From: Takakia lepidozioides
Lineage: Eukaryota; Plantae; Bryophyta
Direction of reading: 5' to 3'
DNA length: 64,000 nt
Assembly: GCA_030704615.1 (NCBI GenBank)
Contig: CM060731.1
Coordinates: 85,994,001 to 86,058,000, forward strand
A program made the translations under genes and the position numbers. The notes beneath the pieces were generated by a model. It worked only from the letters and a program-made list of their open reading frames with translations. It was not told the origin of the DNA and did no database searches. Shown here piece by piece: positions 1 through 60,396 of the stretch. Position 1 is the first letter of the stretch. Each line of letters opens with the position of its first letter.

Positions 1-419
1 GCAATGAGCAATGACAAAATTCATGACAGGAAGATGCATGACCAAATCTTTTGACGAATGCACCTCGTATATGAAATGAGTGTGGAACGTTTGTGGGGTG
101 GATTAAAGAGTACAGAGGATGAATGTACAATGGATGTTGTACAAAGGAAAAAATTCATGAATGGAGCACGCATGAATACAGTGTAGATGAATGCACAATG
201 GATATGAGAAGAGTCAGGGAGGTTTGTGAGATGGATTCATACATATTGCAATTTAAACGAAAGGTGATTCTGTGATTATTATTTGTTCTAAAGGAACAAC
301 TACGGTGGAGGAAGGGGATTCAACGTTTTCCAGATAATATGAAAATAAATATTAAAAAAATACAGTTCAGTCTGACTCAGAGTCAGTACAATGTATCCCC
401 GCTTCCTCTGCATCTAAGT

Positions 420-3400
420 CTAAGTATTTTAGAACACCGGATCCACGCTGGATACACCTACGGCTGGCCACTAAAAAGTCAGGGGATAGGGACTCGGCCG
501 CGTGAAGTGTCATTGCCTCGGCATAAACAGGAAGAAGAAAATTGGAAAGGGGGCTGTCGAAAACAGACTCGCCATAAATGACTGTATCTCCTGAAGATCC
601 ACCGCTGCCTTTCCTGAAAGACAGCCTGAAAAAGTTATTACTGTAACTTTGATGTTATCGAGAAATTGAGTATGACTCCCAAAGAGGGTTTAGCACTTAC
701 TCACATGAAAAGTCGTTGTCGACCTGCTTATCTTCGGGATCGTCATCATTTCGAATTTGAATCCGATCAGTCTGTGTGCCTGAAGTGGAGCCAGACAAAA
801 GGGGGAGGAGCACTGTGTTGTAGAGGTCAGAATCACCCTCCATGCCAAAAAGGCTTCTTCCGCCTGCCTTGCATGTGTGGTAAGTTGCTCCTGCACCAGA
901 CATGAGAACATGAATAGTTTGGAGGGGGGGATTTAAGCAGATGAAACTGTTGAAAGGAAACCAATTCGGAAGGGAAAAAACGAACCTGTGGACACAGAAA
1001 GATCGACCACCCGTGCAGAGCGGTGGCTGCATGACTCTAGCAGTATTTGCATGAACGCTGGTGACTTTTCCTTTGCACCTCTCCAGGGAGTGCCATCTGG
1101 TCTCTTCAGAGTCTGACTGGATTGCATGAAGTTGTACAAAATGTCATCGACATGGGGCTCATAAGGGGGGTTGACGAAACAACCCTGGTCAGAAATCTCA
1201 AAGCTGCGAATGGAGGATGGTGTCTTTGAGGTGCGAATCCTCCGCAGGCAGATTGCCTCGAACATCCTCGTCTGGCAAAGATAGCAGGTTAGTGTGGTAA
1301 ACACAATCTATAGTGGAAGTGTGTATATCGGCTATTCAGAACTCTGACACAAAAAAATCATGAATCGGTGATGATCGGTGTCGATCATAACACATTCTAC
1401 TAGAGTGGAGCTGCAGAGAAAATTGAAACTCATGATCAAAGCACAAGCAGAAGGGAGACGGCATACCAGCTGACCAGGGAAACCCCCTTTCACAAGGTAG
1501 AGGCTGTTCACACAATTCCATGTGCGCAAAACTTCAAACCCTGAAGACTTGAGGTATGATGCCAATGCCCGACGACTATCATTGTCACATGACTGAAAAA
1601 GCAGAAGTGTCCCTGCATCAGAGAGGAAGTTGTTGCAGAACCCGAACACCCAATTCCAGTAGTTGTCCTCGAATTTGTTCCAGCCTGGCGTCTTGCCCTT
1701 TGGAAGAACTTCTGGCACAGCCTGGCCATCTGGGATGTCGAGAATGACAATGTCGGCCGCATAAGTTTTCTGCACACCGCACACGAAGGTGGGACCTGTG
1801 CTCACCTGCAACAGACATGTTTTTTATAAGAACGATGGCAAGATTGTTTTCAAAGAACGAGACTGAAATACTGCCAACGAAACTTTCAGAGAAAAAGAAA
1901 AGAAACTGGAATTCTCACCAGATTGAGGAATGAGATTATATTGTCCCAGGTAGGGGATGGCACCCCAGTGTATCCTCTCTTTCGACTCTGCATCATCGAA
2001 AGCCAACCCTCATTAACAATTTTCATCTCTCCTGCGGAATCAGAACGGGAAGGGTGTGGCTTAGCATCGAACACGCACTGAAGAGTGCGGGTATATCTTC
2101 CAGCAGTAAAGTCCTGCCCACTCTCCATCTCCTTTTCATTCTCCTTCCCCTTGTCATTTTCCTTCTCTTTGGACTTGTCTTTGTCCTTTGGCTTTGCTGG
2201 TGAGATGGCTATGACATCAACAGCCTTGTCTTTTGGTTTGCGGCCCGCCTTCTTTCCCTTCTGCGGCGTTCCCTGAGCATCAGGCTCCTTGGCAGCCAAC
2301 GTTGCTATGTTTCGTTGATACTCTTCGTCAGTCAAAGGCGCCAGCATCTCAGCGTTATTGTTCAAGTATTTCATATGCTGTTCTTGAAAGGTCGTGTGCT
2401 CAGGTGGGCAGTCAAGGTACCAGCCACAGTCTCTGAAGTGAGAAGGACTCCAGTCCTTCAATATCCCTGCAGTATACATGGTTGGATCGTTTGCAGGGTC
2501 CGACCACATGTCAAGATAGTCGGGAATTCCGCTCAGGTGATTTCCTTCCATAAGCACATATTTCGTGTACCTGAAAAAAGGAGATAACTCCCAACCCACA
2601 AAAGCGCTCAGTGAGTAAGATGCAAGTAGAACAGAATGAAAAAAACATAGATTGAAATGGCTCTGAGAACTGCTCCAAGGACCTTTCAGGACCACACTAC
2701 TGCTCCAGATATGAATGTCGTCAACGCCATTCAGAACATTCCATTCAATGATAATGTAAATACACCCCAATCCAGGTGAATGCAAATTATCGTTTAGGAA
2801 TGACACATACATAGAAGTGAATGTCGTCAACGACATTCACTAATGAAGCCAAATTAATACTTAAATGAAGCAAAATCACAGGATGGAAATCAAAAAATCG
2901 AGTAAGGAACCCACCAGGAAAACTCAATGCACATTCATAACGAACATATCACTGAGGACCTCACAACATCACTGTATGTGAATGACGTCAACGCCATTCA
3001 CAAAAATACCAAAAAGAAACCAATTACTTAGCTCCCAATCCATGTAAATTCAATTTGTCGCTGTTGAATAATACAAACACAGCAGTGAATGTCGTCAACG
3101 ACATTCACTTTGGATTTCTCATAACAGAGCTTATCAAGCCTCCAGATTCCTCGCAAGAGGCAAAAACAATGCAGAACAACTGAATGTCTGCATTGACATT
3201 CAGCAAAATGAAGTGAGGAACCCTCACTGTAACCTCTATGGACATTACAAAAATTTACATAACTCTGAGGACCTCTCAACAACTCTGTAGGTGAATGTCG
3301 TCAACGCCATTCAAGGACATTATCAATTCTAATCAGGGACAATATAATTGCACCCTTAGATCCTAACCAGGTGAATTCATATACTCGCTTAAGAATGACT

Positions 3401-5264
3401 CAGACAAAGAAGTGAATGTCGTCAACGACATACAATCTGGATCTAAGATTGCAATCCATATGAAGCCACATTTTTTCCCAAAAAAAACAGTAGAGTTTCA
3501 AGTATGACATTGCACCTGTACACAACTCGCATCATGGCCCACTCTCCTCCAACCTGACTGTCAAAGTCGTTGGACCGTAAAATGTTACCATCTTTGGAGA
3601 ACTCCCGGAAAAAACAGTATCTCCAGGTGAGACCTCTCCACTTCCTTATGTATGCCTCCAATGACATTTGGGGAGGGGAAACAATCGAAATATTCAGGTC
3701 CTTCAAAGTTTGATCCAGCACAATGACGGCGCGCTTTTCGAGCTGCAAATAGTATATTTGTCAGAATTGCAAAAGAGATAGTCATCACATACTTGAAGAG
3801 AAGAAAACAGCATGTTCGAATACACACCTGACTCCAAAATGTAGCCTTGTGGAGCCAGTTATCAAACACCAAATCACTGATTCCTCCACCTTTGTGCCAG
3901 GCTGTATGGTGCTCTTTGGGAACTGATTCAAGTCCTTTACTGTTTGATCTGAGTTCCATATCTCCAGCCACCTTATTTTTGTTTGTGGGTCGACCATCGA
4001 TATGGCCAGCCGGTGTAATTTCTCCTGCTGCATCTCCGGATGCACATACTTGTCATAGTGTGTTTTGATCTGCTGAAGGAACTCAGGACCAAGTCCAGGA
4101 TCTACTATTCTAAGCTGCTTTCCGAAGGCTGACATCAATTTGGTTCTTCGCATTTCAAACTCCTTCTTTATTGCAGCTTCCACGCCCTTTGATGTCCTTA
4201 GTTCTTCTGGTGTAGTGCGGTAATATTCGGATTTTCCCTTCTCAGCTGCCTCTGCCAGTTCTTGCTGCATTCATTCAAGTAGTGATTAGCTCCGAAGGGA
4301 CTACAAACATATATTCGAAAAGTAAACAGAGTACAGACTCGGGCTTACCGCATACATGTACTCCAGAAACGCCTCTCGTGTCAAAGAATACCAAGTGCCT
4401 ACAGCTCTTCCTGTTTCGCACTTCTTGATGATATTGGGTGGTAGTACTGTCCGAAAATCATCCAGCTTCATCAGACCAATCCTCTGAATTCGGAATAGTG
4501 TGTGAACCAAGCTTGTTGTCACATGCGATTTCTCTGTCAATCTGCAAAAACATTGGAAACATTGCATTCCTTAACACTGTTTTTTGAGAATTAATAAGAC
4601 ACTACAGAGGGAATGAAATCTCCTGGATGACTTACTTGTTCACGTCGTGCATAGCTGTAAGAAGCCTAGCGATGTCGTTTCCAGGATCCAAAACCATTGC
4701 CTCCACAGCAACATGCTTGTCTTTGTCTTTCGAATGGTGTTTCTGAATGTATCCCATCCATGCCAGCAATCGGTGGTTGCCGTCCCAGACATAGAACATG
4801 TGGTTGCAGAATTGCTGGGTGTTCTTTCCCATCATGAGGCCCAGCTCGAACTCCTCATTGGCATCTTTCCAGCACTCATCCCAGTTATCACTGATCTCTG
4901 GAGACACTAATGTGCTTTTCCCATTTATATCCGTCAGTGACACATAAAAAACTTGTGCACCAAGTCTATATCCATGCACAAAATCACTCTCCAATTTTGT
5001 TATGTCATGGGAAAGAGGTGGACGCACAACAGGCATTGATATCATCCGGCACAGAGGTATGTCCAGACGCCCTCCAGATACGAGCATGTCCCTTATAACC
5101 TCCTGAGAGTTTACCTTCTGGAATGACATGAGTTCTTTCACCTTGTCAAGGTAGTGCACTTCGGATTCATCTGCTTCATCTGTATTCTCTGAGCTTTTTG
5201 CGGACTCGTCCCCATCTCCAGATCCTTTCCCCTCTGATCCTGTAGGCTTCGACCTCACAGTTTT
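420..5264 (-). pseudogene. Spliced ParB/Srx-like + beta-class N6A/N4C DNA methyltransferase-like gene, copy A (exon 2 onward)
   Basis: Exon 4636-5264 has RPPLSHDITKLESDFVHGY and FYVWDGNHRLLAW (ParB/Srx DGxHR). Exon ~1467-1806 has DIVILDIPDG (motif IV position). Exon ~985-1271 has PWRGAKEKSPAFMQILLESCS..RVVDLSVSTG, and the next exon has ATYHTCKAGGRSLFGMEGD (motif X-I-II order of the N6_N4_Mtase family). GT-AG introns. One frameshift near 3880. The 3' end is approximate. Confidence 0.8.
2711..3435. repeat. Intronic array of 24-bp palindromes GTGAATGTCGT-CA-ACGACATTCAC (copy A)
   Basis: Copies at 2711, 2817 (perfect), 2978, 3085 (perfect), 3180, 3291 and 3412, spaced 95-161 bp apart with partly homologous spacers. 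Confidence 0.9.
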
Positions 5265-5306
5265 CTGCACGATGCCATTCAGTTCTGACTGAGTGATTTG
5301 CAAATA

Positions 5307-5598
5307 GTGAATGGCGGTAACGACCATCACTCTGTCTCAAAGAAACTCACCATGAATGGTGTGAAAGAATTCAGCACAATCTACACAAGCAAAGCTGATA
5401 CTGCCGTATTCAAAACAAAAGCGAGAGCGATAGCGAACGGCGTTAACGACGGCGTTGTGTAATGACATACATGTGCAACTGATTGGCGGCAACGACAATC
5501 AGTGTAGTTTAGGGCGGATAGTAAGTGCAGACTCTCTCTTCAAACACATAGGTACATAAATCTCATGAGGAGAATCGAATGGCGTTAACGACGCTCGC
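5307..5598. repeat. Degenerate copies of the copy-A palindrome in intron 1
   Basis: GTGAATGGCGGTAACGACCATCAC (5307), ~5433, CTGATTGGCGGCAACGACAATCAG (5479), ~5575. Confidence 0.75.
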
Positions 5599-5656
5599 AA
5601 TTCAGTAGTTCCTGCTAAAGAAGGGAAGAGGAAGGACTCCTTGAAAGGCAATCAGA

Positions 5657-7630
5657 CGGGATGGAGGCTTTGGAGATCTAGGAGCAAATGTTGCGCGAAG
5701 GGGCGAAGCCCAACCACATCACATTTGTTTGTGTTTGCAATGCGTGTGCAAGCCTGGGAGCTCTGGAAAAGGGGAAAGAGGTCCGTGGTGACATCGTCAA
5801 AGCTGGAATTGTACCAGATGTCATTCTGAACACTGCCCTGGCGGACAGGTATGCCAAATGTGGGTGCATTGTCAGACCTGCAATTGTACAAAATGTCATT
5901 CAGAACAATACCCTTGTGTACATGTACGAAGGGAGTATTCGACAGTATGGATGAACGAGATGTTGTGTCATGGAGTGCGATGATTGCAGGATATGCACAG
6001 CAAGGGTGCGCGATGGAGGCTTTGGAGATCTAGGAGCAAATGTTGCGCGAAGGGGTGAAGCCCAACCACATCACATTTGTTTGTGTTTGCAATGTGTGTG
6101 CAAGCCTGGGAGCTCTGGAAAAGAGGTTCGTGGTGACATCGTCAAAGCTGGAATTGTACCAGATGTCATTCTGAACACTGCCCTGGCGGACAGGTATGCC
6201 AAATGTGGGTGCATTGTCAGACCTGCAATTGTACAAAATGTCATTCAGAACGATACCCTTGTGTACATGTATGAAGGGAGTGTTCGACAGTATGGCTGAA
6301 CGAGATGTTGTGTCGTGGAGTGCGATGATTGCAGGATATGCATAGCAAGGGTGCGGGATGGAGGCTTTGGAGATCTAGGAGCAAATGTTGCGCGAAGGGG
6401 TGAAGCCCAACCACATCACATTTGTTTGTGTTTGCAATGCGTGTGCAAGCCTGGGAGCTCTAAAAAAGGGGGAAGAGGTTCGTGGTGACATTGTCAAAGT
6501 TGGAATTGTACCTGATGTCATCCTGATCACTGCCCTGGTGGACATGTATGCCACATGTGGGTGCATTAAGGATGCGAAGGGAGTTAATTTCAACACCAAG
6601 GCTGAACGAGATGTGGTGTCGTGGAACACGATGCTTGCAGGGGCATGGGATGGAGGCTTTGGAGACCTATGAGCAAATGATGGGGGAAGGGGTGAAGCCA
6701 CATCATGTTTGTGCGCGTTTGCAGTTCGTGTGCAAGCCTGGCAGCCCTGGAAAAGAGCAAAGAGGTGCATGGTTGCATCGCCAAAGCTGCTGGAATTGTA
6801 CCAGATGTGATTCTGAACAATACCCTCGTGGACATGTATGCCAAATGTGGGTGCATCAAGGATGCGGATGAAGTGTTCAACAGTATGGCTGAATGAGATT
6901 TGGTGTCATGGAATGCCATGCTAGCAGGATATGCACAGCAGGGGCGCGGGATGGAGGCCTTGGAGACCTATGAGCAAATGATGGGTAAGGGGTGAAGTCC
7001 GACCAGATCACGTTTGTGTGCGTTTGCAATGCTTGTGCAAGCCTGGCAACCCTGGAAAATGGCAAAGGATGCATGGTGACATCATCAAAGCTGGAATTGT
7101 ACCAAATGTCATTATGGACACTGCCCTGGTTGACATGTATGCGAAATGTGGGTGTATTGAGGATGCAAAGGGAGTATTTGACAATGTGGCTGAATGAAAT
7201 GTGGTGTCGTGGAATCCGATGATCGCAGGATATGCCCAGCATGGTTGTCATACGGAGGTCCTGCAACTATTTGAAGGAATGCAAAAGAATGGCTTGAAGC
7301 TGGACAGTATCATCTTTATATGTGTTCTCTCTGCATGCAGCCACATTGGCCTACTGAATGAAGGAAGATGCTACTTCGATTCCCTGAGTCAACATCATGG
7401 TGTCACCCTGCCAGTAAATCACTTTGGCTGCATGGTGGACCTTCTAGACGTGCGGGACAACTACATGAGGCAAGGTACGTGATTAATAAAATGCAAATCA
7501 ATTTAGATGTTGTGGTGTGGAAGGCCTTGCTTGGTGCCTGCAGAATCCATGGCAATGTGGAGATGGCTGAATGTGTGGCAACATCTATCCTCAAGTGGGA
7601 TGAACAGGATGCCGTGACTTATGTGTTGCT
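5657..7630 (+). pseudogene. PLS-class PPR pseudogene, 3' part with E domain; starts with ~2.5 units of the 352-bp repeat
   Basis: PNHITFVCVCNACASLGALEKGKEV, NTALVDMYAKCG, ICVLSACSHIGLLNEG, HFGCMVDLL, VVWKALLGACRIHGNVEMAE. Many frameshifts and stops. The DYW region is missing. Confidence 0.9.
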
Positions 7631-13582: not shown

Positions 13583-14210
13583 CACTCTATTGTGCAACGA
13601 CGCAATGGCGTGAGCATTGCGCGTGAGCGCGCGAGCGTACGCTCACGCAGGAGTGACGTGGCGTGAGCCTGCACACACGCTGATGTGGCGTGAGCGTCAT
13701 GTCAGCATGCTGATGTGGCGGTAAATGATGACATGGCACTGTCCGTCATCTGCCACGTCACCATTAACATGCGCCGCCTATAACCGTGGATGGTCCTATG
13801 ACCGTGGAATTAATGCAGGGAATCTTGCCTAAATAGAATCAAGACGAGCATTGAGGCCTACAATTGCAGCATCCAACAGTGTGCAATTACAAATGCTTGT
13901 TTCACTTTTACAATTACGAGGACGACAAAATATCCTCACAAAGTGTGCGCCATAAAGGCTGCCACGGGACCTCCTCCCTCCTCAAATAACAATGAGAGTT
14001 AGGATCATCTTCAAAAGATGATTGTAGTGCATAGCGACAGCAAGACATGTAGACTTCAAACGGTGCAATGACAAATGTGCACTACCTAAAAGTTGTCACT
14101 CAGAGCTGACTCCGTATAGTTGGAGGCCATATCATTGCACAGCCGACGAATTGATGTGAATTACACATTTCAAATCATGGTCATCCACATACCGCATTAC
14201 ATAGTTCATG

Positions 14211-17200
14211 CTACCCATGTGTTGTATCCCGCTGCAAAAGAGTATCGACCTCATTGAAACTCATAGTGGCCTGGTGAATGAAGTTGTCGCGTTTGGGATC
14301 GCAAACCATCCTCCTCAAAAATATGAAATACAAATGTTTGCAGGGTATGAATTTACCTCTCTTGCCCAAACTGGTTGATAGCATATTCACAAAATCAGGA
14401 CATGTGCAATTGGGGAAATTGGAAACCGTGATGTCGTAGGTCCTGTCATGAACAGCAGATGTGGAAGTGATGATTGTGAATACCCGACCATATCCTGGAT
14501 CGGGTACTTCCGTGGTGCTTCCAACACGAGCTTGGAGCATTCTTGCGGACTCCACTTTGCCAAAGTGTTCAGCGGTTGGAGGGAAACGCCGAACGAGCTT
14601 TCCATCTCGTTTGGTTGGCCACAAGTCAGGATTTGCCGGGGGGACCCGGGAGGACGCAGAAGTAGTAGCACATGCATGGAGTTGGGGTTGTCTCGCAAGG
14701 GAAAAACCTGCCTCCTCCAGCATTTCAATCTCTTGAAAGCTGAGATGTGTTCCCACCTTCACGGGCCAAACGGTTGGAGGAGTTGGCTTCATCACTACGG
14801 AAGGACGCACAGTTCCATGCACACATCTGGCACAATCATCTGCGCAGAACCAGAACTTGTGGTTCTTGGCTTCTGGTTGACCGTATGGACGCATCAAGCC
14901 CGTGAAAGTCGGAGCAGGAGTCGGGGCACCACCTCTGGATATAGATGAAGTGCATTTCTCGAAATTAGTTGCCCTGATCGCGTACATTTCACACGAGACC
15001 CTACACTTGTGCGTTCTATGTGCCAAACGTGGTCGGGGCATGCGGACTCAAGCACATCAAGGGGGTTGTTTCTCTCCTGCACCATTTCAGTGGCACTATT
15101 TGATGCTGGAGCTTGCCGTCGTGTTGGAGGTTCCTCCACAATGGAGGTTCCGGACATGGAGCTGTCATGCAGGGGAACACGAGGCTTCGAGAAGTTATCA
15201 CGGTCTGCCTTGTGGGAATCTGAATCCGAACCAGGTGGAGTGTTCAATTTCCTCTTACAGGAGCCGAATCTCTCCTCCCCTTCAAGATGTGGAACTCTAG
15301 AAACAAGTGGCGTTCCCTGGGCATACATGCTCACCGCCCGTGCTATCTTGATTGGATCCCCAGATCTGTTTGCAGCACGCAACATCAACTCCCATTTGTC
15401 CGGACCCTTGCCACCAACCCCACCTCGTAAGAAATCACGGTATCGGGTTTGTTGTTGCAAGGCACGTATCAAATCATCTGTTGTTGCCACATACAAATCC
15501 CGACCTCGTTTCCTAGACTGCTGCAACCATGCGTTGTGCACAGTTTCTGCCAAATTGCAAGATGGCATGTCCGCCATTTCCTCAATGGACATGTTCTGCA
15601 AAGAGGATAACCACACTTCAGAACAGTGCACAGGAAACAACATAAAGAAAGCAATGAGTCAAAAATATGGAAAGCAAATGTATGAATAAAGCATGAAATA
15701 GAAGCCTCGTACCATTGTCATGGCTGCTCCCCACTGTCTATACCGGAAGTGCCAAAACGCCAGCCAATCTTCCAATGCTCTCATACTCTCAAGTGATGCA
15801 GCTCCAGAAGAGAACCACCATGCACGAATTGTCTGGAACAAAGTGTCCGCCTCCTTCATTGTTCTAGCATCTTTGTACTCTTTGCACAATTTACGGTGCT
15901 GAGTCTGCATCTCTGGTTTGATGTCCGACTTTGTATGTTTTTCTAGAGATTGTGTCCAATGGAATAGACATGTACGCTCTCTTCCTAGCATAGGCACTTT
16001 TGGGTCGCCCGATCCAAAGACAATACGAACAGCATTGAAATTTGCTTGAGCACTATCCGCCATGAAACCTGCGAAATTTGGAGATGGCAGCCCATGGCAG
16101 CCCATGACACGTATCAGGGAATTCCACACGAGCTTCTGGGATTCTGTATCCTTGGATTGCATGTCACAAACTGCAATTGTCATAACTCGTTGGTACACTG
16201 GATCGTAGACATGACAAGCCATTGTCGTCCAATCCTTCACTTGTTTCACATGATCAAACATAAGAAAACAGTTCTGCAAGTCCCCAGTCTTCTGCATCCG
16301 CTTCACGAGGCTAACCCACTGCCCTCCCCAACAGTCGACATTTTGAAAAGAAAAACTTTGATGGCACCTTGACCTGGGAATACATTGTCCTGGATGTAAT
16401 CGTACTTGCTCACTCGTTTCAATTCCAAAATATTGTCTATGTAGCCTCTGATCCCAGAGCCCATTCTCAATGCATTGATCTGATGCCGAATGTTAGGTGA
16501 ACTTAAAGTGGAGAAATGATCCATGACCAGGTCCAATGCTGCACCGTCAAGTTTAGTCCCCACAGAATCTCCTTCACTCAAAATATGGCTTTCCAAGAAG
16601 GACTTGCTTGCGCCAAGAGCAATTGCAGATGTTGTTGCGGATGGGTTTCTCCCGAACTCCTGTTTGATCAACCTCGATACTGTCTCAACACTCTCCCTGT
16701 AATCCCCCTTCGAGACAGGATGGTTATGGAATCCAAAATGCACACAAGCTCTCGTCATTGTATTCAAATGGTGGACAACATAGTACATTCTTGCTCCGCA
16801 GAGCGCCAAACAGGATGGCACAAGTTTGCAGAATTTGCAGACGAAAGTGTTTGCCGGTGGAGGGGCAGTCCCAGGCTGAAATGGATTTTCCGCCAGACCC
16901 TCCCATTCGCTTTGATTATGAACCCCAGACTGAAGAAAGTGTCTGCAATTCAAATTATTACACCTAAGGTGTCCATTGCAAACTGTCCTCCTGAAAACAA
17001 GCTTGTCATCATTCTGAATATTGGATGTTTTTGTTCTGCACCACGGGTGCCAGTCGTGTTTCTTGTCCATTCCATGCATCATGATTGTTACACCTCCAAC
17101 TCGCGGAGGAGGAGGCAGCTCGAATAGGATATCGCCATCAAAAGTCTCCGGCAAGAACTTCACAGGCACCTGCTTCAAAGATTCCCAATCAATTCCCCGC

Positions 17201-17722
17201 AACTCACTTTTGAATCCAGCCATTCTCCCATCGCCCGCAATTTTGGAATGACACTACAAATCTCTTCTTCATCAGCTTCTCCAACCACAGTAGGAAGGAC
17301 TGGATTTGGAATTTCACTTATGTCATCATCGGAAGAATCCGAAAGCTCAACGATTGGAGTGGAGGACGTCTGTTCTTTTTTCACCACCACCTCCCTCTTG
17401 TCTTCAACGACCGAAGCAGCAGTCCCGGGCGTCACATATGACCCAAGGGACTGTCGCCGAGGCTCTCCAAGTACTCTGTATCGACCAGGACGCACTCTCC
17501 ACTGGCTGATATGAGCCGTCTCATCACGGTTTTGGAAAGAATATTTCACCAACTTCCCTTTAAGATCGTACACCTCTTTCTCCAAAAGATGGAGCCATTC
17601 TGCAGCTGAAAACGGGTAGCCAAGACATGTTCCAGAACAATTGCAAATCCATTGTCAAGGACTTCCTGGGAGAACGGCACTGGTTTGTCGTCAGAGAAGA
17701 ACTCCGCTTCAGAGGAAGCCAT
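14211..17722 (-). pseudogene. MULE-type DDE transposase with N-terminal GCM-like Zn domain and C-terminal SWIM (copy B)
   Basis: GCM-like WCRTKTSN..CNGHLRC..C..CKFC..CGARMYY..GFHNHP. D1 LMFDHVK, D2 FMADSAQANFNAVRIVF, CxxH CLFHW, E NLAETVH, SWIM CTCPDF...CKHLYFI. One intron at ~15597-15711. Several frameshifts. Confidence 0.85.
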
Positions 17723-27467: not shown

Positions 27468-27731
<264 letters not shown>

Positions 27732-32200: not shown

Positions 32201-32389
32201 TTTCTCTTTGCCACCAAGGCCATTGGTTTTGGGCTGATCAGCACGACTCGTCAAGAATCTTCGAGTGTGTGGAGACTGCCACACCTCCACCAAATTCAAA
32301 GATTGTTGGCCGAGCAATTGTTGTATGGGACGCTAACTATTTTCCACCACTTTGAAGATGGGATTTGTTCTTGTGGTGATTACTGGTGA
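29295..32389 (+). pseudogene. PLS-class PPR-E-DYW RNA-editing factor pseudogene
   Basis: N-terminal LCEAGRLNEALQTL, many PLS repeats, E domain VVWKALLGACRTHGNV, DYW domain MKEAGYVPDT...HHFEDGICSCGDYW*. Multiple frameshifts, and the HSE motif region is deleted. Confidence 0.92.
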
Positions 32390-33107: not shown

Positions 33108-33121
33108 CGTCGCTAGTAGTG
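33108..33121 (-). mobile_element. Possible orphan CACTA terminus
   Basis: CGTCGCTAGTAGTG is the reverse complement of CACTACTAGCGACG. No partner end or TSD found. Confidence 0.35.
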
Positions 33122-35848: not shown

Positions 35849-38800
35849 ATGTGGATGCAACAGAAAAGGTTATACATTCTTAACCAAATTGTCGTGGCAA
35901 CAATTCGTTTTTGTGGTGTTTGGCGCTTACTAATATGCTGGGTAGTTGGACAGACCCGGTGGCTCCAAAGTTGGAATGGTTCCCAAAGTACAACGGACAT
36001 GTGGAGCTTCCCCAAACCCGACAAACTGTCCGACCCCACATTCGACATGTGGATGAACCGCATGACATGGTGGTTTCAGGTACTTTCCCACGCTTCATTT
36101 GGGGCTTCTACTCTTGTATCAAATGGATTTATTGTATTTTTTGAGGAAAGCGGTCTGATGGAGAATGTCCACAGGTGACGACGAATGCGCAAGAGCAGTT
36201 TGACACACAAGCACATCAGTTCAAGCTAGAGATTTCTGGTGAAGCAGAGAGCCTACGCGACTATGTGACAAGGTACTTTCTGCTCTACAAAACCGACCTA
36301 TTCTTTCGAGAGATACCCCATGCCCGCCGGAGCCACGAGTTCACCGACCAGCCGAATGCGGACAAAGCGGCAATGCGCCTTCTGTACAGGTACATTAGTT
36401 GTGAAGAAGTCCTTGGAAAAATGGCACCGAATTTCCGGATTTGGGCCCTGGGGGATGGCTGTCCAGGGGGTGACTGGCACTCAGTCTGGAAATTCGGCGC
36501 CATTTTTCCAGTTGCAGGCCCAGTCAGATCTAGGACTTAGCCATTCTCGGCCCCAACCTGGGAAAATGGCGCCGCATTTCCAGTTCAGGGCCCCGAAAAT
36601 GGCTAAGTCATTGGGGTGTGTGGCACCGAAACTGGAAATTCGGCGCCATTTTTCCACTTCTGGGCCCAGTCAATTCTGGGACTTAGCCATTTTCGGCCCC
36701 AACCTGGGAAAATGGTGCCGACTTTCCAGTTCAGGGCCCCGAAAATGGCTAAGTCCCTTGGGTGGCTGGCACCGAAACTGGAAATTCCGCGCCATTTTTC
36801 CAGTTCCGGCCCCAATCAGTTCTGGGACTTAGCCATTTTCGGCCCCAATCTGGGAAAATGGCGTCAAATTTCCAGTTCAGGGCCCCGAAAATGGCTAAGT
36901 CCCTGGGGTGGCTGGCACTGAAACTGGAAATTCGGCGCCATTTTTCCAGTTCCAGGCCCAGTCAGTTCTGGGACTTAGCCATTTTCGGCCCCAATCTGGG
37001 AAAATGGCGCCGAATTTCCAGTTCAGGGCCCCGCAAATGGCTCAGTCCCTGGGGTGGCTGGCACCGAAACTGGAAATTCGGCGCCATTTTTCCAGTTCCA
37101 GGCCCAATCAGTTCTAGGACTTAGCCATTTTCGGCCCCAATCTGGGAAAATGGCGCCGAATTTCCAGTTCAGGGCCCCGCAAATGGCTCAGTCCCTGGGG
37201 TGGCTGGCACCGAAACTGGAAATTCGGCGCCATTTTTCGCGTCTATTTTGCAGTTTGATTCCCTAAAATTTACCTTGTTCCCGGGACCTCATTATGTGTG
37301 TGTTTCTTGAATGCAGGTACTGCAAGTTCTCCCTTTTGGAGAAAGGTCATCTGTCCTTCGAGCCGCCATTCTTCCTCCCATGGAGGAACCCTGGGGCTGA
37401 CTCCATGTACACTGACGTTATCGTGAAGGAGTGGCATCTGGAACATTTGCGCGACTGCCCTTGGTATGTGGACCTTCCGCCCGGCTCGCTCGACTCATCC
37501 GAGTTTCAATTGAAGCTGGATGCGGAGGCCCGACGAAACCGGGCTCCGCTGCCTCCGCTAGGTCCAAAGGAGGCGAAAGCGCTTGCCAAGTCCAGGAAAG
37601 CGGCAGAGCTTGCTCAGGTAGGTATTCAGGAGAAATTGAATGAGAAGAATAAAGGTCAAAAGAAAAGGACACGGAAATAGGGGAGTACAGTAACCCCCAA
37701 AAAACAGAAAACCACCAGGGCACCAGAGGAGGCGCAGGAGGGGCCCCAAGGGAGTGACTCCGACGACGACTTTGTGCAAGGTCCTGCGACTGCTGCTACT
37801 GGTACCAAGTCACCGGTCGTCCGGGTTCCCAAGTCAGTTCGGACTGGGACTGGCTCTGTCAAGAAGTTGGCATTTGAGGGCGAGCCTACACGGCGGTATT
37901 CGGCGGTGATGTTTCCGCAGAGGCCAAAGCTAGAACCCCCAACCATCATCCAATGTGTCAATGAGAGCTTCCTTGACGCTCTGGCTGCCAAGGCGAAGAA
38001 GGTGGCACACAGCAAGTCTGTGGAGGAGCTAAAGGGGAAAGCCAAGAAGAGGGCTCCCAGTACAGAGCCTAAAGACACCCTTGGTTTCGAATCCATGATG
38101 GAATTCTTCACGGCTGTGAGCACGGATTGCAAGAGCACTCGGGGGGGGGGGGGGGGGGGGTTGAGGTGGAGAGAGTCTGCGATATGATTCTCCTCGATAT
38201 TCCAGATGGGGAGCTGCTGAAGGGCCTGGATGGTGTGCCCACCTGGAACAGGTTTACTGAGGACTACTGGAGAGCCGGGTTTGGGCTGGTGGGGATGCTC
38301 CTGGATGACGGTGGATGTATTGTGGTCCTTGCCACAAGAGGGAAGACCACAGACAATGATGTGGCAAGGTGGACACCAAAAAGTGTCACCCCGGTCCTCC
38401 TCAAAAAATGGTTCTGCATCAATACGCAGGGGTTGCGAACAGAGGGCCAGAGTGTAAGTTATCAATCTATTGCATTCACTTCATATTGTGGTGTATCTGA
38501 ACTAGACCCTGGAGTTGATCCCTCTTTTGTTGGATGTGCAGACTTTGGTGTTTGAGGCATATTGTTTTGTGAAGAGAGGGTCTACGTTCAAATTCCGCAA
38601 CGACGGTCGTCTTGTTGATGCCGCTGTGCACCCTGTTACCTACGATGTTCTCTACAACTACGTGCCCCACTCCAGTATGCCGAAGGACACAAAGACAGGC
38701 AAACCGTGGCGGTACAGCCGGACCCGGAGCCCTGCTTTCATCCAAACCCTCATGGAGACGTGCTCGGATGTCCAAGGGCGGATTCTTGATCTCACATGCG

Positions 38801-49921: not shown

Positions 49922-52900
49922 TTACCTACATAACATCATCAGCTGATACTTCATCATCCGTGTCATAAGCCTGTGATTCAGAGGCAACAACTGATCATTG
50001 GAAAGACCTACATCACGTTGTTGATGTATTGAATGCAAAGCTTGGGACTCGGCATACGAAGGTAGATAAAACGATGAAAGAGGACTTTGGGGTAGACTAT
50101 CGTAGATGGTCCGCACAATCCCATCACTGCATCACACATACATGTATACTTATATTAACAAATCAAATGGGAATGGTTTGCTTTGCAAATAATATAGAGA
50201 TTGCAACAAAGGGAATGGAGGCGAGACATACTCACTAGGAAGTACTGCCGAGATGAAGACCAAGCTTGTGCGCCACCTTAGGAGCGGGGGGTTCCAACAA
50301 ACTCACAGGACGTTGAATGGTTGGAGTTACCACAGATGAAACCAAAACGGGTTGAGTATTTTGAAGTGCAGAGAGACGTGCTGCATACAACGTCTGGTCC
50401 CCCTCAAGACCAAATACGACGTCCAGACTCGCGGGCAGCAATAAATGTAGAACCTACAGGAAAAAAACATGCAATGATGATATTATATCGGATAACAGTT
50501 AATGATCATGAATCAGCTCAGAAGATTTTAATTACAAAATGGAGACCAATGCAAACCTGTGCCAGCTGTGAGATCTAAAATGCGGGAGCCAGGAGGTGAG
50601 CATGTCTCCAACAACACTTGCATGAAGGCGGGACTACGGTCTCGTGCACCCCTCCAGGCTTGTTGAGGAGCTTGCATGGGTAGTGCAACATCTGGAATGT
50701 GGTTGTAGATGGCATCCAACTCAACAGGGTCTGCAAGGGGGTCCACAACTTTGCCAGACTCACGCAGTTTGAATAGTCCTCCTTGCTTGGTGAGGACATG
50801 GGCATGGAAGATCATGGTCTGTTAGACGTGCCATTTCCACAAAAACAGTGCACCCGGATGGTTTAATAATATGTATGAGAGTAGGAAGATGAAACATCAA
50901 ACAATGAGATATTGAAGAGGGATGATTTTTACCTTTTCTGTCTGAGTGTGTAGAGGGGTGGTATTGATGCAAGTGTATTTCCTTGATAATACGGAAATAG
51001 AGCTGCCCCTGGAGTAAGAAAAGAGCTCCAATGCAAAAGAATCATCGGAGCCCTGCAAGAACACCAAGCATCCATTGTCATCCAACAGGTCATTAGCAAT
51101 GGAGAATGCATACTCCCAATACCGTTTATCAAAAGCATTCCAGGGAGGAACCTGTACACCATCCAAACAACCCTGTACAGACATTCCTGTTGGGCAGTCC
51201 ACAATGATCATGTCCACAGCCACAGGCACGCTTTTTCCATCCACAACACTAGACCAAGTTCCTGGCAACTGCAAACAACATACAGAAAATATAGGAGTCA
51301 ATAACCGGATGATGAGGATATAAAAACATCGAAGAATTCCTTACATTCAAGTTTGTTTGTTGGGGGAAACTCACATTTTTTAAGAACTCCATGAGCTCTT
51401 TCAAGGTCGCATCAGGAGATGTACTTGAGGCCTCCACCATATCAATGAAATGAGTAGGCATGATCTTCATGCGTTACATGCTAGGTGCACCACCAGAAAA
51501 TGACACTGCACTGTAAGGATGTTCGCCTGCCTTTGGCTTGTTTCCTCGAGTAGTAGGTGCAGGCACTACAACCAACTGATTTGAAGGATGTGAAGAACTA
51601 CCAATAGGACCAGCAATAGAAGCCACACCTGCATTGGGGGCCACACCTGCATTGACATCCGCACCTTTTCTTTTTCGTGATTTGCGTTTTGGTACACCCA
51701 CAACGGCAGGGACCACTTGGGCTACAGCGTCAGCGGCCTGTGTAGCAATCTGTTCTACATGCTCCAGATCAAGAACATGGACTTCAGTGGAGATACCCCC
51801 TTCATCACTCACTGACTGCCTGCGAACACATTCCTTATGAAGTCCCATTTCTGCATAGGGGATAGTACCCTTGGGCATATCCAAATACCAACCCCCCCCT
51901 TCCCGGTGTTCCACACCCCAATCTTCCTCAATTGCAGGTGTGTACATGGAAGCTTGTTGAGCACCAAACTTCCAGGCCATCAGAAACTTGGGCTCAGCCT
52001 TAAGTCGATCACTCGGTACAAGCACAAATCTCATGTACCTAAAATACAAACACATTCAAAGTTATTGTGGAGACAAATATTTATGCAACCTGTTCAACAA
52101 TTGAACAAGCACATTAAGAAACATGTATATCCCAATGTACCAGAAAAATACTTGAAGCATAGACATTTTTGACTTACAAGGTGTATACACTATCCATGTA
52201 CAATGCAATGGAAAGTACCTGAATAAAATCCGTCTCACCACCTTCTCCCCACCTGTTTGTTGTTCCCAATCATTGCCTCTGAATGGCACCTTTGGCAATG
52301 AGAACTCTCTATGAAACAACTCATTGAAATGAGTCATCTTCCATGTATCTATGTAGTCTCCCAGACTCTCACTCTCTCCTTCCTCCAAGGCAACATGAAA
52401 TTGGCCAAGCTGAGTGGTGTACAAGGCAAACTGAGCCAAAGCAACCTTGCGAAGCTGCCAGAAAATACAGTCAGTTAAATAACTATGTTAATGTGTCATC
52501 AACAAAATGAATTAATTGCATTGAGAAGATAGTGATTGTATATGTACCTGCCACCAAAAAGTCCTTCTATTCAGCCAAGGATCAAGTGTTGGCCCACTGA
52601 TAGGCCCGGGTGGAAAAAAATTACGGTCGTGAAGTGTTTGGTCTCCATTCTATATATGTAGCCATTCCACCTTTTCTTCAGGATCCACCCGGGCGGTAGC
52701 AATGTTCACCATTTTCTCTTGGGTCATTTCCTCTGATCCTGCCTTTACACGTGACCAATGTAGTTTAAGTTCTTGGAGAAACCCCTCTCCAAGGGTTGGA
52801 TCAGCAATAGGAAGCAACTTCACAAGCTGACTCTTGTGTTGCTCCCTTGCTTTCAATCCAGCCTATCTCATTGTATTTTCAAGGCCCTCTTGACTCTTTG

Positions 52901-55499
52901 GCCCGTTAGCAAGTTTGTAAGCTTCCCCCGCCATGCGTTGGGCCTCAACAATATCATGCTGCCAAAAGAACCAAAACAGTTCATAACATGAACCAGAGGT
53001 GAATCTTGTCTATGGATGCAAAGAATGAAACTTGGTTAAGACATGATGTTACCTTGTACAAAATCTCTGTCATTGCATGGACTGTCAGGTTATACCAAGT
53101 CTTTCCTGCTTTCTTGATGCATTCGTCGTATTGCTCTTTCCTCAATACATTCTTCCATTCAGAGACAGGTGTAAGGCCAATCATATTGACCTTGCAAACC
53201 AAGTGCACAAATTTGGATGTAACATGTGCCCTCTCTGTTGCCCTGCACATATAAAATATGATCATTTGAAAGAAGATGTGTATATGTACATCCATTGAGC
53301 AAGAACATGACAACATTGAACATGAAAGTAAATGAAGAATAGAAAGAAACTCACACATTCACTCCATCCATGATAGACCTGAGGGAACCACAATTTTCAA
53401 TGTCCGCATTGAGCACCCAACTTGTCACACAGACATGTCTTGACAAGTTGGCCCCATGAACTTCATTGATATAGGGATACCATGCTTGAAGCCTATGATT
53501 CCCATCCCAGACATGAAACATCTTCCCCCGAAGATGATGCAACTTTGGCTTGGACTCAAGATACTTCTCAAACTCATCATTGACTGTTTTCCAATGACTA
53601 TCCCATGTAGAGATGATATCAGGACCTACATCTATAGTAGATCCATCAATCCCCTCAACAGAAACATAGAATACGGCTGCTCCTAGATGGTATCCAGAAT
53701 AGAAGTCTCCTCTAAGCTTTAGGATGTCGTTGGCAAGGGCGGGCCTAACAACCTGCATAGAAATCATGCAACACAATGGAATGTCCATAACTCCATCCTC
53801 AATGAGGAGGGACCTGAAAGTTACATTCAGATCTTGTTTCTTTTCCAGAATAATTGTCTGTTTGGCATCTAGAGAAAGAGGATCACTAGATGTTGTATCC
53901 TCTTCATACTCATCTGCCCCCCAATTCCCTGCATCAATGTCGTCAATAATGGTTGCAAGCGTCCCGGCCTCCACAGCTTCAGTTGTAGTAGTAATTTCCT
54001 AATTCCATAGACCAAAACAGTTCAAGATGTCAGTGTATGAGAAGAGCACATGTGTGAATGTATAATATGTAAAAAGAGCAGTTCAGTGTCATGGTTGCAT
54101 GAAGAAAACAAATGAATTTGGATAGTCAACTAATTCCATGAATATCCTTGTCTTTCAAAGCTTACAACTTGGAGCAGAATACAGGCCTGAGCATCCCGAC
54201 AGAGGACCTCCGACCACCTACGCCGGCGCATATGACACATATGTGCAACCAACTCAAAATTTGACAAGATTTGAGGCCCTTGAAGAAATTTTTGCTCAAG
54301 GAGCTCCAAGCATATGCTCCGGCGCATACCATGGAAGGGAAGTTGTAGCCAAACATACAGGAGCACCTTGAAAGATCAAACTAGGCCTATGGAAGCATGT
54401 GGAGTTGTGGAGGTGGCAACGTAGAAGCTTTGAGATACTTGAATACTGTGATCAGCCAAAATAGGGAAGGTTCCCCAAGCGTCTGCGCCGACGGAGGTGG
54501 CAGCCTCGACACTTTGGAGCTTACGTAACACAAGGAATATACAACAAAAAACCAAGCTCCAAGCATCTCCGCCGGCGGAGATGCTTGCATGAGGTTCCTG
54601 AAACCTAGGAGCTAAGCAAAAAAAGATTGTGCTCAATGGGATGCGCCGGCGGATATGGCAGCCCAGCCCGCTCGGAGCATCAACAACTTATGAGATTGCG
54701 GAGAAACAAAAGAGATGGAAGGGGGGGCGAACTTCCTGAAATATGTGAGCAGCCCTGCTGCACGGGTCTGCGTTGACAGAGGTGGCAGCCTTGGCGCTTT
54801 GGAGCTTCCGTAACACAGGGAATATGCAAAAAAAAACCAAGCTCCAAGTATCTCCACCGGCGGAGACGCTTACAGGAGGTTCCTGAAACCTATGAGCTGA
54901 GCAAAAAAAAATGTACTCAATGGGTATGCGCCGGCGGATATGCCAGCGCAGCCCACTCGGAGCATCAGCAATTTTTGAGCATGCGGAAAAACAAAGGAGA
55001 TGGAAAAAGGGAGAACTTCCTGAAACATTTGAGCAGCCCTGCTGCACAGGTATGCGCCGGCGGATACGCCAGCCCAACCCGCTCGGAGCATCAGCAACGT
55101 ATGAGCATGCAAAAAAATAAACGGGATGGGAGTAGAGGAGCACTTCCTGAAACATGTGAGCATCCCAGCTCCAACGGTATGCACCGGCGGAGGTGGCAGC
55201 CCAGCCCTTCCAAGCATCAGAAAAAACCAAGGGGAATGAGCTGTCTCCGCCGACGGAGACGGTTGTGTGTATGTGTGGAGATTCGCAAACTTGTGAGAGT
55301 TGAAGTGACTTAGGCATCTGCGCTGGCGGAGGTGCTAGATTAGGAGCAGCTTGGTGGGGCTTATGCGATGGCGCATATGCCTAAGTGCAGGTCATGAAAA
55401 AAAAACAAAACTACAGCTTACCTTCTCCATCCGCAGCTTGCCTCTACCACCACCACCACCAACAACGCCTCCCCCTCGAGTGTCCTTCTTCCTCCCCAT
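49922..55499 (-). pseudogene. ParB/Srx-like + N6A/N4C MTase-like gene, copy C
   Basis: Exon 1 at 55422-55499 (MGRKKDTRGGG...MEK, phase 0). ParB exon ~53355-53998 (VVRPALANDILKL, FHVWDGNHRLQAW). MTase: DMIIVDCPTG, PPWN, LLDDNG, AWRGARDRSPAFMQVLLETCSPPGSRILDLTAGTG|STFIAARESGRR./FGLEGD. A few frameshifts. The 3' end is approximate. Confidence 0.85.
54215..55380. repeat. Intron-1 array of ~12 CGCCGGCG-centred palindromes (copy C)
   Basis: Perfect 28-bp palindrome CAAGCATCTCCGCCGGCGGAGATGCTTG at 54560-54587. Variants at ~54217, 54311, 54480, 54640, 54765, 54846, 54923, 55049, 55176, 55241, 55314 and 55361. Confidence 0.9.
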
Positions 55500-56855: not shown

Positions 56856-59800
56856 ATGTCTACACCAAAATATGCATTGCTTTCATGTCCACCTGATGCA
56901 AAAGTAGTTCGTTATCCTTGCAATGGAAACAAGTGCATTATCCCAGAACCTTGGTTATGCAATAGATTCAAACTTGTTCCAGGTTCAGTTTTTTTGGAGG
57001 ATGATGGAGATGATGATGCCTCCACAGTGTTGCTTCCAGTTTTCAATGACGGCCAAAAACAATGGGAGTTGTTTCCAGACACTTTCTCCAAGTACTGTGT
57101 CACAGGTACGAGCTATACACAGTCACATGATGAGAGGCACACTTCTATTGCAAGAAAGAACGATCAAGCTGCAACAAATGGGAGTTGTAAATTGAAGGAG
57201 GAGGTTGCAGATTCGGCGAGCTTGGGGTCTCATAATTCGGATTGTGTTGAGGTTTCTAAGAGTGTATTTTGTGGATCTCAACCTTCCTCATCTGCTCATA
57301 CAGTCTTGCTTCATGACATGAAGCCTCGGAAAACTCCATTGGACAACACCACGTCTGATTGTTGCGAATGTGCGAGGGGTTTATCTTCATCTCCACGACT
57401 AGCAGGGGAGGCTACATTTGCATTTCCTTATGGTGTGTTGTCCATTTTGAGTATCTTGGCAACTGCTCGGAGGAATGGATCAAAAGGATAGCTTTCTACC
57501 TTAGACTATAGTCACATTCCAGTGCATCGTGTTCGGTGTCTTCCTCGAGCTTTTGATGGAAAAGTGATCCATGAACTCCCCCCCGTGGTCAAACTACGTA
57601 CGGACCGTGGTTCACAGTCCCTCCAAGGCATGGACCGCAAGTTTGATGGTCATCCTTGGTGCAAGACCAATACCTACAATATGTCTGGTGTTCCAGATCA
57701 TGTGAAATGTAGTAAGGTTCTTTGTGTTGGAAAGCTCATATGTCAAAGTAGCACTTGCCCCTTCTTCAAGAAAGAAGGAGAATGGAATGACCGCTATTGG
57801 GAAGGCAATGCAGACAAGGTGTTCATTGCAGGAGCCCAAGTTCCATTCAACCAGTTCAAGTGTAGTTTCTGCAAAGAAAGACCTTTTTGTGAGGCGCATT
57901 GTGGGGCAAGAATGTACTATGTCACAAGTTCCCTTCCAACATATACACATGTTGCAGTTCACGTTGGGTTTCATAACCATCCATGTGCCAAGGGCGAGGA
58001 TATAGAGGCTGCGGAAAATGCATCAAGCATGATTCAAGAGCACGTTAAGATGAAGCCATGGTCGACCCGGGAGCTATTTCTTTGTCAATGGCCCAAAAGC
58101 TCTTGATTGATCGAGTTCTTGTGGCTGATGGCACAGAGACAGTACGTCTTGAGGGAGAGGCTTTGGAAGATATTTTTGAAGAGTTTGCCCATGTTTATAG
58201 CCCCAATGTGAAAAACAAGGTCACATCTGCACGTGTCAATTCCATCATGTCCAAATTGGAGTTGAAGCGTCTGAGTACATACCATTTCATTCACAGCAAT
58301 CTCCTTCCAGGCCAACATACTTCTCATCTCCCCCATGTTTTCAAGATGTCTGTTGCTGGTCCCGGGAGTGGTGTTGATCTTGTGCGTCGCATGAGTGAGG
58401 GGGATCTACGCACAAGTTGGGTAGTATTTGACCATGTCAAACGCATCAAGGATTGGACAACTCTTGCGTGTCATGTCTATGAACCATATGTCAAGCGAAT
58501 GATGACCATTGCCATTTGCGATATGAAAACAGAGGATGCAGATGCTCAGGTGTTTTTATGGGAGATGATCAATGAACAAGCAAAACTTGCTGGCTTGAAC
58601 AAACCAAATTTTGCTGGCTTCATGGCGGATGCAGCAGGAGCGAATTGGGCTGTTGTTCGAAGGTTTATGGATCTGATCCCAATGTCCCAATGGAAGGTAA
58701 AGAAAGAACATGTTTATATCATTGGGCTGAAAGCCTCCGAAGACACACCAACGACTATATCTTGGAGGACTTCCATGAAAGGCACACTCAGCTCTGTTAT
58801 GAATGGAAAGATAGTGCTACCTTGGAGGATGCTACAACCACATACATTGCAATTCGGGCTTGGTGGCTCTCTTCAGGAGCATGCACAGAAAAGAGTCTGC
58901 CAAAACTGGATTCATGGCTTGCATGGTGGCACTACAGATATCGAATGTGGGGCCAATGGATGAGAGATGACATGGATGTGGAGGCAGATGCAGATATGCC
59001 TACCACTAATTTGTCTGAGGCAGTCTATTCTGCTTGGTGGAAGACAGCAGGCAATGGGAAAAAAATGAAGGTGGATCTATATGAGGCCACCATGCATGAC
59101 ATGTCACGAGCTCTTTTGCAGCAGACAACATTTTACAGACACACCACAGGAAAGACATGGGGGACGGGGCCCGACAAAGAGGAGCTCATGTTGCGTCAAG
59201 CAGCTAGATCTAATAGCCCAGCAAAAATGGGTAAGGTTGTACGTGGCATAATAGGTGGAACACCCATGCACACAAGGGGGGTTCAATTGGAGGGAGACAA
59301 TCGCACTATTCCAGTCAAACGCAAGTTAGGCGATGAGCATGATGGGCCAAACGAATCTTGGAGGTGTGATATGAATGTAAAGACTGTTCCAGTGCGCGCC
59401 ACTGGGATGCCCAGTCCACACCAGCCATCTAGGTTTGTCAGCTCCAAATCAAGTCATGACATTCCTGGTTCTTCGACTTTCTGTGAGACAAATCCATATG
59501 TTGCTATCCCTCCTCAGCCAATGCAATGGGGAAATCCAGTGAGAGAGACACAAGACTTTTCCGATGCATTGTTCAGGATTCAGCGGACAGGTCTTGCTTC
59601 CATGGTTCGTTGTTTTGCCTTGGTTGGAGTTTCCAAGGATAAATGCAAAGCGCTCATCAGGAAAGGTAAAGGAAGTCCTGCACCTTGCTTCACTGGCAAG
59701 TTACTAGCACCGAACATGAAAGAACCAAACTGCAAGTTTTTTGGTTTTGCCCCACAGATGTTTTGTCGTGTGTTGGAGGGACCGTGCCATCCTATTGCTT

Positions 59801-60396
59801 GGGAAAACCGGGTATACCTAACGTGTGGCCTGTGAAGGTTGGAACCAACCTTACACAAGAAGAGGTGGACAACTTGACCCTTGCAGGTTTTCGACTAGTC
59901 CATCCTCCCAACGTTCCTGATCCGAACTTTCCCGTGGGACCACTTCCAGTGGAACAACATATTCATCAAGGTGTTGTCCTTCCTGTGGGTAAGTATCCCA
60001 CTACACGCTATGGGGTGCGCATTCGACGTCCGGATCCGACTCCTCGACACTTGAGTCGCCAAGAGTCAGCAGAGACTCTTATTGCTGAGGTTCGTGGATT
60101 CAGAAACGTGCCTCAGCCAGATTATGGGAGAATTTACCAGCTACAAACAGAGGGATCTACCAGAGCATGATTGGTTTACAATGTATACATTGATCAGTTT
60201 CCATCTTGTGATTGTCCCGACTTTGATGAGCTATCTGTCAAGAAGAAAAAAACAAACATATCTACCTTGTAAGCACATGTACTTCATGTACAACGTGCAT
60301 CTAGGATGCGCCGGGGCTTATGAGATCCACCAACCTTCCCTTAGCCAGTTAGAGGTTAGGGCTATGCTAAAGAAGGACCCTAGTTCAACTTCTTAG
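56856..60396 (+). pseudogene. MULE-type DDE transposase with GCM-like and SWIM domains (copy C)
   Basis: HPWCKTNT..CVGKLIC..C..CSFC..CGARMYY..GFHNHP; VVFDHVK; FMADAAGANW; CLYHW; TNLSEAVY; VWPVKVGT; C.CPDF..PCKHMYF. Stop at 57491 and about five frameshifts. Confidence 0.88.

Follow-up and report, generated by a model that had tools for sequence, protein, structure and literature searches.

We analysed a stretch of 64,000 nucleotides from the genome of Takakia lepidozioides (contig CM060731.1, positions 85,994,001 to 86,058,000; hereafter the window) and found that copy A, a minus-strand and predicted spliced gene joining a ParB/Srx fold to an amino-methyltransferase, carries arrays of 24-bp palindromes of a fixed design. 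Our preferred reading, which we hold with a probability of roughly 0.65 from sequence comparisons, is that such arrays are binding sites for the protein of the gene in which they lie, an accessory gene with ParB and methyltransferase folds belonging to a plant DNA transposon family. Taken for itself, binding of the palindromes by the element's own protein appears likely. The feature is real and family-wide, and it is neither a bacterial parS nor categorically new; it would best be read as a self-recognition system comparable to those of VANC or VirB, rather than as a parS used in segregation. New here are the grammar of the sites, the way it diverges from family to family, and a host of Mutator type, the concept itself having already been proposed in 2025 for algal transposons.

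A preliminary description of this DNA had claimed at least 11 copies of the palindrome, and a relaxed search of the window recovered 11, each 24 bp long, in an internal and a 5' cluster (Table 1). Six copy A sites lie within three mismatches of the 24-mer consensus, while none of 100 shuffled sequences gave any match, and widening the search to eight mismatches added just two sites in the window, both with the full eight. The sites had been described as 11-bp arms around a 2-bp centre, whereas a layout of N8-CG-N4-CG-N8', in which an 8-bp arm, a CG, 4 bp and a second CG are followed by the complementary arm, fits better; in the internal array, the arms GTGAATGT and ACATTCAC flank a CG-TCAA-CG core. 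Of the 8 arm positions, 6-8 are complementary in each of the seven internal copies, and 5, 2, 7, and 4 in the four 5' copies, in order of position; the palindrome at 5433 is poor because of a deletion at 5450 in copy A relative to other family copies. Changes affecting both arms, which had been named as a check, are present in the copies at 3180 and 5479, and the arms are complementary even though they diverge between families. The internal cluster is built of three tandem units of ~270-310 bp with two palindromes per unit, plus one extra copy. Between these units the palindromes are 92-94% identical and the spacers 59-66%, which bears out the earlier statement that the palindromes are the better conserved part. 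Among family copies in sequencing contigs, the interval 5283-5657 has variable positions at 1/96 palindrome and 22/279 spacer sites (Fisher p = 0.013), a difference that is suggestive given that cover dips at 5435-5472.

The palindromes had also been reported as confined to two introns. This holds for the internal cluster, where a GT-AG intron is predicted; the 5' cluster, also outside coding sequence, is presumably intronic and likely the remnant of an intron-1 array, the equivalent array of paralogue B being in a predicted intron 1. Copy A is cut at its 5' side, with the loss of exon 1 and of any partner gene. With this cut and a frameshift near 3884, copy A is itself dead, and binding at its sites would be in trans. 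Many variant copies across 1-5600 in public contigs mark it as a member of a multi-copy family, and one contig, presumed to be RNA, crosses a predicted intron unspliced.

Two paralogues, B and C, were located in the window by tblastn, and each has an array of its own (Table 1). The array of B has CG at 20 of its 22 core dinucleotides. The intron position of A's internal array recurs in both genes, in B as a short intron without an array and in C as the intron (36390-37316) that holds C's array. A, B, and C have three different arm sequences within one window. It is extremely unlikely that the copies are the ends of an unrelated miniature inverted-repeat transposable element (MITE) or sites of a host transcription factor: the A motif is restricted to gene A within the 64 kb, the arms differ among three genes of one genome, and the spacers are tandem duplicates of one another rather than the bodies of inserted elements. 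The arrays of relatives are likewise tied to the ParB gene and not to MITE ends or element termini, in line with the earlier interpretation.

These relatives comprise 80 loci from metagenome contigs (designated by L numbers), which form 47 clusters at 90% exon identity. Unbiased palindrome clustering placed their arrays both upstream of the ParB exon (at 300-2500 bp) and within the gene (at 1-3 kb); around CG-N4-CG they have arms such as GACCCTCT, TGAGGTGC, GGTATTGG, TAAGGTCT, GCTTCTYT, and TCAACTTT. The geometry is common to the families and the arms are family-specific. The copy A motif is present in none of the 80 loci and had no match in viral contigs; a single isolated match in a bacterial genome was taken as chance. 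Arms agree within clades on the protein tree (25 rows, with 7 of 22 branches strongly supported), and the positions of the internal arrays differ between families. We then counted strict sites (CG cores, arms matching at ≥6 of 8 positions) in the 47 dereplicated relatives together with A and B. With the 4-bp spacer there were 22 upstream (46.3 kb) and 13 internally (70.8 kb), as against none far upstream (63.8 kb), none around the ParB exon (40.8 kb), and one far downstream (74.4 kb), while eight other spacer lengths yielded nine strict sites in all zones combined. When all 16 core dinucleotides were compared upstream, CG gave 18 sites and no other dinucleotide more than 4. Arrays of at least three copies were found in 14 of the 24 clusters having ≥1 kb of upstream sequence. 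Of the tiles used as controls, 1 of 39 from flanks and 2 of 20 from the window had such an array, the latter two in a tandem array of pentatricopeptide-repeat (PPR) type, and with other spacers the count was 1-2 of 24. Old copies that are AT-rich show TG/CA where the CGs have decayed, which suggests that the sites carry 5-methylcytosine once a copy is dead.

The arrays could in principle be neutral, with a hairpin-prone palindrome seeding slippage, conversion homogenising the products, and no protein reading them, and their tandem nature, including cases in which repeats were copied along with their flanks, is what such a process would leave. We nevertheless regard this as very unlikely, since the CG-N4-CG spacing is constant across proteins that are just ~30-45% identical, and CGs are kept within CpG-poor introns (in copy A, at 19 of 22 core dinucleotide positions against an observed/expected CpG ratio of 0.27 in the intron spacers). 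Moreover, A, L038, L058, and L060 each have two arrays with a common motif and unrelated flanks; in copy A, the two clusters share 71% identity in the motif and 31% in the flanks, two of the four 5' copies having been compared. Even less probable is a role as RNA hairpins in pre-mRNA, for splicing control or as a source of small RNA. Located in predicted introns, the copies could indeed fold into stems of 10 bp with loops of 4 nt, but G-U-compatible mismatches on the sense strand are not in excess (G-T 120 vs A-C 117 in 18 arrays, p = 0.90, leaving out the four weak arrays of L030, L042, L063, and L064), a balance expected of duplex DNA rather than of an RNA stem. In addition, many centres are self-complementary (GATC, GCGC, CCGG), and Rfam at its gathering score gave no match in 1-5700.

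In six of the eight clusters with ≥5.5 kb of upstream sequence, a transposase gene of the same type lies head-to-head with the ParB gene on the opposite strand. The window holds two degenerate transposases of this kind, one of them head-to-head with B. Both have the Mutator D-D-CxxH-W-E arrangement with 66 amino acids (aa) between D1 and D2; in the copy at 14-17 kb, CxxH follows 32 aa past D2 and is succeeded by W and N-L-x-E, and a SWIM match (E 0.003) falls below the cut-off. In Muta1 the D1-D2 distance is 69 aa and that to CxxH 24. Pfam MULE families gave no match for these transposases, and the Mutator class rests on the reading of motifs; a Sola identity for the partner was rejected on the same grounds. 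No convincing terminal inverted repeat of the element was found in the window or in 12 long loci, given decay or truncation of the copies, and a search for target-site duplications, which measure 8-9 bp in the Mutator superfamily, was equally unproductive. A tandem 302-bp duplication separates B from its transposase (55898-56506), each unit of which bears a different 24-bp palindrome, TGATTACT-CA-TGTA-TG-AGTAATGA.

This arrangement raises the possibility that the partner transposase binds the sites, as an internal enhancer or for synapsis in the manner of subterminal repeats, and that the ParB gene is merely where they happen to lie. The intron-1 array does sit between two divergent genes, and transposases are able to bind and activate cognate copies (10.64898/2026.08.24.746577; ParB is unmentioned in the available text of that source). 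Against this stand the absence of strict sites from the 63.8 kb far upstream, which include most of the transposase genes found and the outer flanks, and the presence of arrays 1-3 kb within the ParB gene at varying positions. Algal ParB genes accompanied by other transposase types also adjoin inverted-repeat arrays (10.1101/2025.02.11.637652), and we consider binding by the transposase to be quite improbable.

The protein of the gene itself is a better candidate. The ParB assignment made at the outset is upheld by a structural model of the copy A exon (mean predicted local distance difference test score 93.6) and by its structure matches: the top Foldseek rows are Noc, ParB, PadC, and Srx (E 0.02-0.1), and in a VIA structure search the ParB/Srx superfamily fills the top 12 of 13 rows, with KorB at Z 7.8 and a root-mean-square deviation of 2.6 over 90 residues. 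A GxxR nucleotide-binding motif together with conserved Arg and Asn residues is a hallmark of ParB, and a GxxR-like motif with flanking Arg/Asn is kept in 52-60 of 66 relatives (R52 in 52, G133 in 60, R136 in 57, A139 in 56, and N180 in 60). Pfam gave no ParB match for the copy A exon and weak DndB matches in 2 of these 66, and a profile search of PDB sequences returned a single irrelevant match. The family is large, with 552 clusters at 50% identity matching the ParB exon at E ≤ 0.001. Its only named relatives are Ceratodon proteins, and no relative of the ParB exon was found in the bacterial and archaeal genomes or viral contigs searched.

For the methyltransferase half, the C-terminal exons of copy A align to the N4/N6 methyltransferase domain of its relatives, two of which pass the PF01555 cut-off (P0005, E 4.9e-7; P0012, E 1.9e-8), whereas copy A's own exons have no Pfam match. 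Ten loci with >3.5 kb downstream gave no methyltransferase match, owing perhaps to decay, truncation, or a different domain. An active N4/N6 DNA methyltransferase has (D/N/S)-P-P-(Y/F/W) as motif IV. In copy A, motif IV reads DIPD (near 1740) and motif I DLSVSTG (near 1000); B has DCPT and C DIPD at motif IV, and L005, L020, L080, L044, and L048 likewise lack the aromatic residue. It is retained in the Ceratodon relatives (DTPF, DQPY); P0005 and P0012 keep D-x-P-F/Y. These differences bear upon a further explanation, namely that the element encodes an active N4-cytosine (or N6-adenine) methyltransferase, for which the palindromes are substrates, and so sets its own epigenetic mark at the two CGs. 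This overlaps with cognate binding and differs from it in requiring catalysis. In its favour, the invariant part of the site is precisely the two CGs, P0005 and P0012 combine a passing PF01555 score with an intact motif, and the idea has been proposed for algal elements, but families without the motif IV aromatic still keep the gene and, where testable, the arrays. Overall we judge it improbable. The preliminary description had entertained methylation sites as an option, and this is doubtful for copy A; writing of 4-methylcytosine or 6-methyladenine is possible in members with DxPY/F and, judging from the motif, questionable in A, B, and C. Copy A's methyltransferase fold is likelier to serve as a module for reading CG than as an enzyme.

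Several observations weigh against recognition of the arrays by the gene's own protein. Each fold match, taken singly, is middling (Foldseek E ≥ 0.02; Z < 8), and no DNA-binding domain was recognised in the middle region of the protein. VirB and KorB, bacterial CTP clamps of the ParB family, are based on a helix-turn-helix, and no match to one is among the structure matches listed for this region, which is not evidence of absence; the model of P0005 consists here of helices, a long helix, and a helical region, its matches spanning just residues ~220-411 plus generic long helices, with low confidence in its methyltransferase part. Fewer than three copies occur in 10 of the 24 clusters with ≥1 kb upstream, and decay or truncation explains some of these but not all. 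Arm complementarity was itself a search criterion and is hence not independent evidence. Linkage alone predicts that arms should track the protein tree, whose deep branches are weak, so the agreement does not prove co-evolution. The likeness between first and second array extends to the flanks in L015 and L019, and less clearly in L006, so copying rather than selection can homogenise arrays. The window does not contain the partner gene of copy A itself. Lastly, some relatives have a second palindrome family without the CG-N4-CG core; it is interleaved upstream in L041, L042, L045, L058, L059-L063, and L072, with arms of the GGAGCCAAGC or TGTGAAGAAC type, and its members may be bound by a different factor, for instance the transposase. 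More palindromic tandem arrays lie far downstream of the ParB exon in L064 (~+9000 to +10200) and L060 (~+7500 to +8300), possibly subterminal repeats or other elements.

The case for a cognate binder can be put as follows. A symmetric site of fixed length, with an invariant inner pair and family-specific arms, multiplied in the introns of one gene, suggests a dimeric protein that reads it, and the protein of the host gene is the best candidate because its fold family loads on palindromes and because the arrays track this gene rather than the transposase or the outer flanks. The proposal of cognate sites and self-recognition thus survives, in that gene-tied arrays and family-specific complementary arms would fit it, while its parS wording does not. 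Bacterial parS is a palindrome of ~16 bp; the plant palindromes, 24 bp long and of CG-N4-CG layout, belong to a eukaryotic transposon and in relatives have a transposase as neighbour. No ParA was found among the 46 of 155 open reading frames (ORFs) of the window that were scanned, and copy A's flank is cut.

Closer parallels exist among eukaryotic transposons. In Ectocarpus, an accessory gene of Sola1-1_Ec32 encodes a ParB-like domain fused to an N4/N6 DNA methyltransferase (~1,100 aa), lies on the strand opposite the transposase, and was proposed to bind and modify its own transposon (PMC12477816, which cites Iyer 2011 for green algae). The plant family resembles it in the fusion of a ParB-like with a DNA-modifying domain and in the opposite orientation. 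It differs in belonging to a land plant and in having a Mutator-type transposase and defined 24-bp sites, whereas the algal element, from a brown alga, has a Sola-1 host with a 4-bp target-site duplication and its target sites are not described in the available text (PMC12477816). In the Plavaka element of Bostrychia, PAG3 combines a ParB-like domain with a 2-oxoglutarate (2OG) oxygenase, adjoins inverted-repeat arrays, and has likewise been suggested to bind the element that encodes it (10.1101/2025.02.11.637652). The plant gene, too, has inverted-repeat arrays in tandem and belongs with these algal accessory genes, although PAG3 has an oxygenase in place of the methyltransferase, an EnSpm/CACTA host, and repeats that are adjacent rather than intronic, and a repeat grammar is absent from section 8 of that source. 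For VANC of the Arabidopsis VANDAL elements, an accessory protein of a Mu-like transposon, binding and hypomethylation have been demonstrated experimentally (PMC5735166). There too, family-specific motifs have accumulated through tandem repeats in introns and other non-coding parts; however, VANC motifs are 9 bp long and in a single orientation, as opposed to 24-bp palindromes with a fixed CG pair (PMC5735166), and the plant-family protein has instead the ParB/Srx and methyltransferase folds. Shigella VirB has a ParB fold, uses palindromic loading sites, needs no ParA, and counters silencing by spreading (PMC10653881). The plant protein resembles VirB and KorB in its ParB fold, KorB by structure match, but both are prokaryotic and lack a methyltransferase domain. 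The available text of PMC4738411 mentions ParB-linked methylases in algae and fungi and not the plant family treated here. No description of such an array in a land plant was found in the literature searched, which left most subscription papers out of reach.

Table 1. Coordinates of copy A, its paralogues, their palindrome arrays, and the transposases in the window.
Feature	Position	Strand	Details
Linker, amino-methyltransferase exons, and C-terminal tail of copy A	371..2570	-	boundaries approximate
Internal-array intron of copy A	2571..3515	-	predicted phase-2 GT-AG intron (R|Y)
Internal array of copy A	2711..3435		7 copies: 2711, 2817, 2978, 3085, 3180, 3291, 3412
Predicted helical middle region of copy A	3516..4541	-	exons 4541-4349, 4264-3828, 3742-3516
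ParB/Srx-fold exon of copy A	4636..5290	-	WDGNHRLLAW; GxxR-like motif; 5' boundary approximate
5' palindrome cluster of copy A	5307..5598		4 copies: 5307, 5433, 5479, 5575
Cut junction of copy A	5657		PPR-like sequence starts; other family copies continue differently
Second degenerate Mutator-type transposase	14200..17650	-	weak SWIM match; no adjoining ParB-methyltransferase gene
Paralogue C	~35.8-39.0 kb		without ParB exon
Array of C	36414..37238		12 sites in 146-bp tandem units, TGGAAATT-CG-GCGC-CA-TTTTTCCA type
Paralogue B	50400..55499	-	24-43% identity over matched stretches; predicted exon 1 55499-55422
Intron 1 of paralogue B	55421-53999	-	predicted GT-AG; holds the array of B
Array of B	54213..55381		11 copies, AGCATCTC-CG-CCGG-CG-GAGATGCT type
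Degenerate Mutator-type transposase	57000..60200	+	head-to-head with B

In this window of plant DNA there are also PPR-like tandem arrays and retroelements. Large arrays of a degenerate PPR-like unit of ~350 bp, in both orientations, extend over 5657-7600, 18910-24442, and 29900-35405, and their edges are the sites of the copy A cut and of two CACTA-like ends. The latter are identical CACTACTACGTTT starts (24443-24455 and 35406-35418), each bordering on PPR-like sequence and leading into GC-rich repeats; they are likely CACTA-type left ends, and no matching right end was identified. Copy C starts ~400 bp past the second of them and may be carried by a CACTA element. Downstream of the first, at ~26,000-28,500 (+), a short ORF with a loop motif presumably resembles a fragment of a nucleoside-monophosphate kinase and is a possible captured gene piece. 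Beside a Ty3 gag-like region, a 1.07-kb inverted repeat (9978-11045 and 11834-12908, 93%) surrounds a 10-bp tandem array.

If the protein of each gene does read its own array, a dimer would contact one half-site per subunit, the variable arm serving as the address of the family and the fixed CG providing a contact common to all, probably one sensitive to methylation. The sites would be multiplied by tandem duplication, giving dense binding of the cognate family only, upon which a ParB clamp gated by nucleoside triphosphate (NTP) might load and spread, sustaining expression of the element against host silencing. We offer this full anti-silencing clamp, on the analogy of VANC in Arabidopsis and VirB in Shigella, as a tentative lead on the purpose of the arrays. 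Its broadest form is doubtful, namely that Mutator-type elements of seed-free plants include a large family whose accessory protein would be an NTP-gated clamp of bacterial type on family-specific 24-bp addresses, sensing or blocking host CG methylation through its methyltransferase fold and spreading to keep the element active.

Few transposon proteins have been shown to recognise their own element and alter its epigenetic state (VANC, TnpA, and some transposases), and for ParB-type accessory genes such a role has so far just been proposed, in algae. The proposal lends itself to direct testing by cross-binding assays, since at least a dozen protein-site pairs occur naturally in which the core is fixed and the arms diverge. 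Such pairs could reveal whether a ParB clamp operates on eukaryotic chromatin, besides offering a possible specificity code for targeted epigenome tools. If true, the arrays would be part of a parS-like, re-addressable anti-silencing system in plant chromatin.

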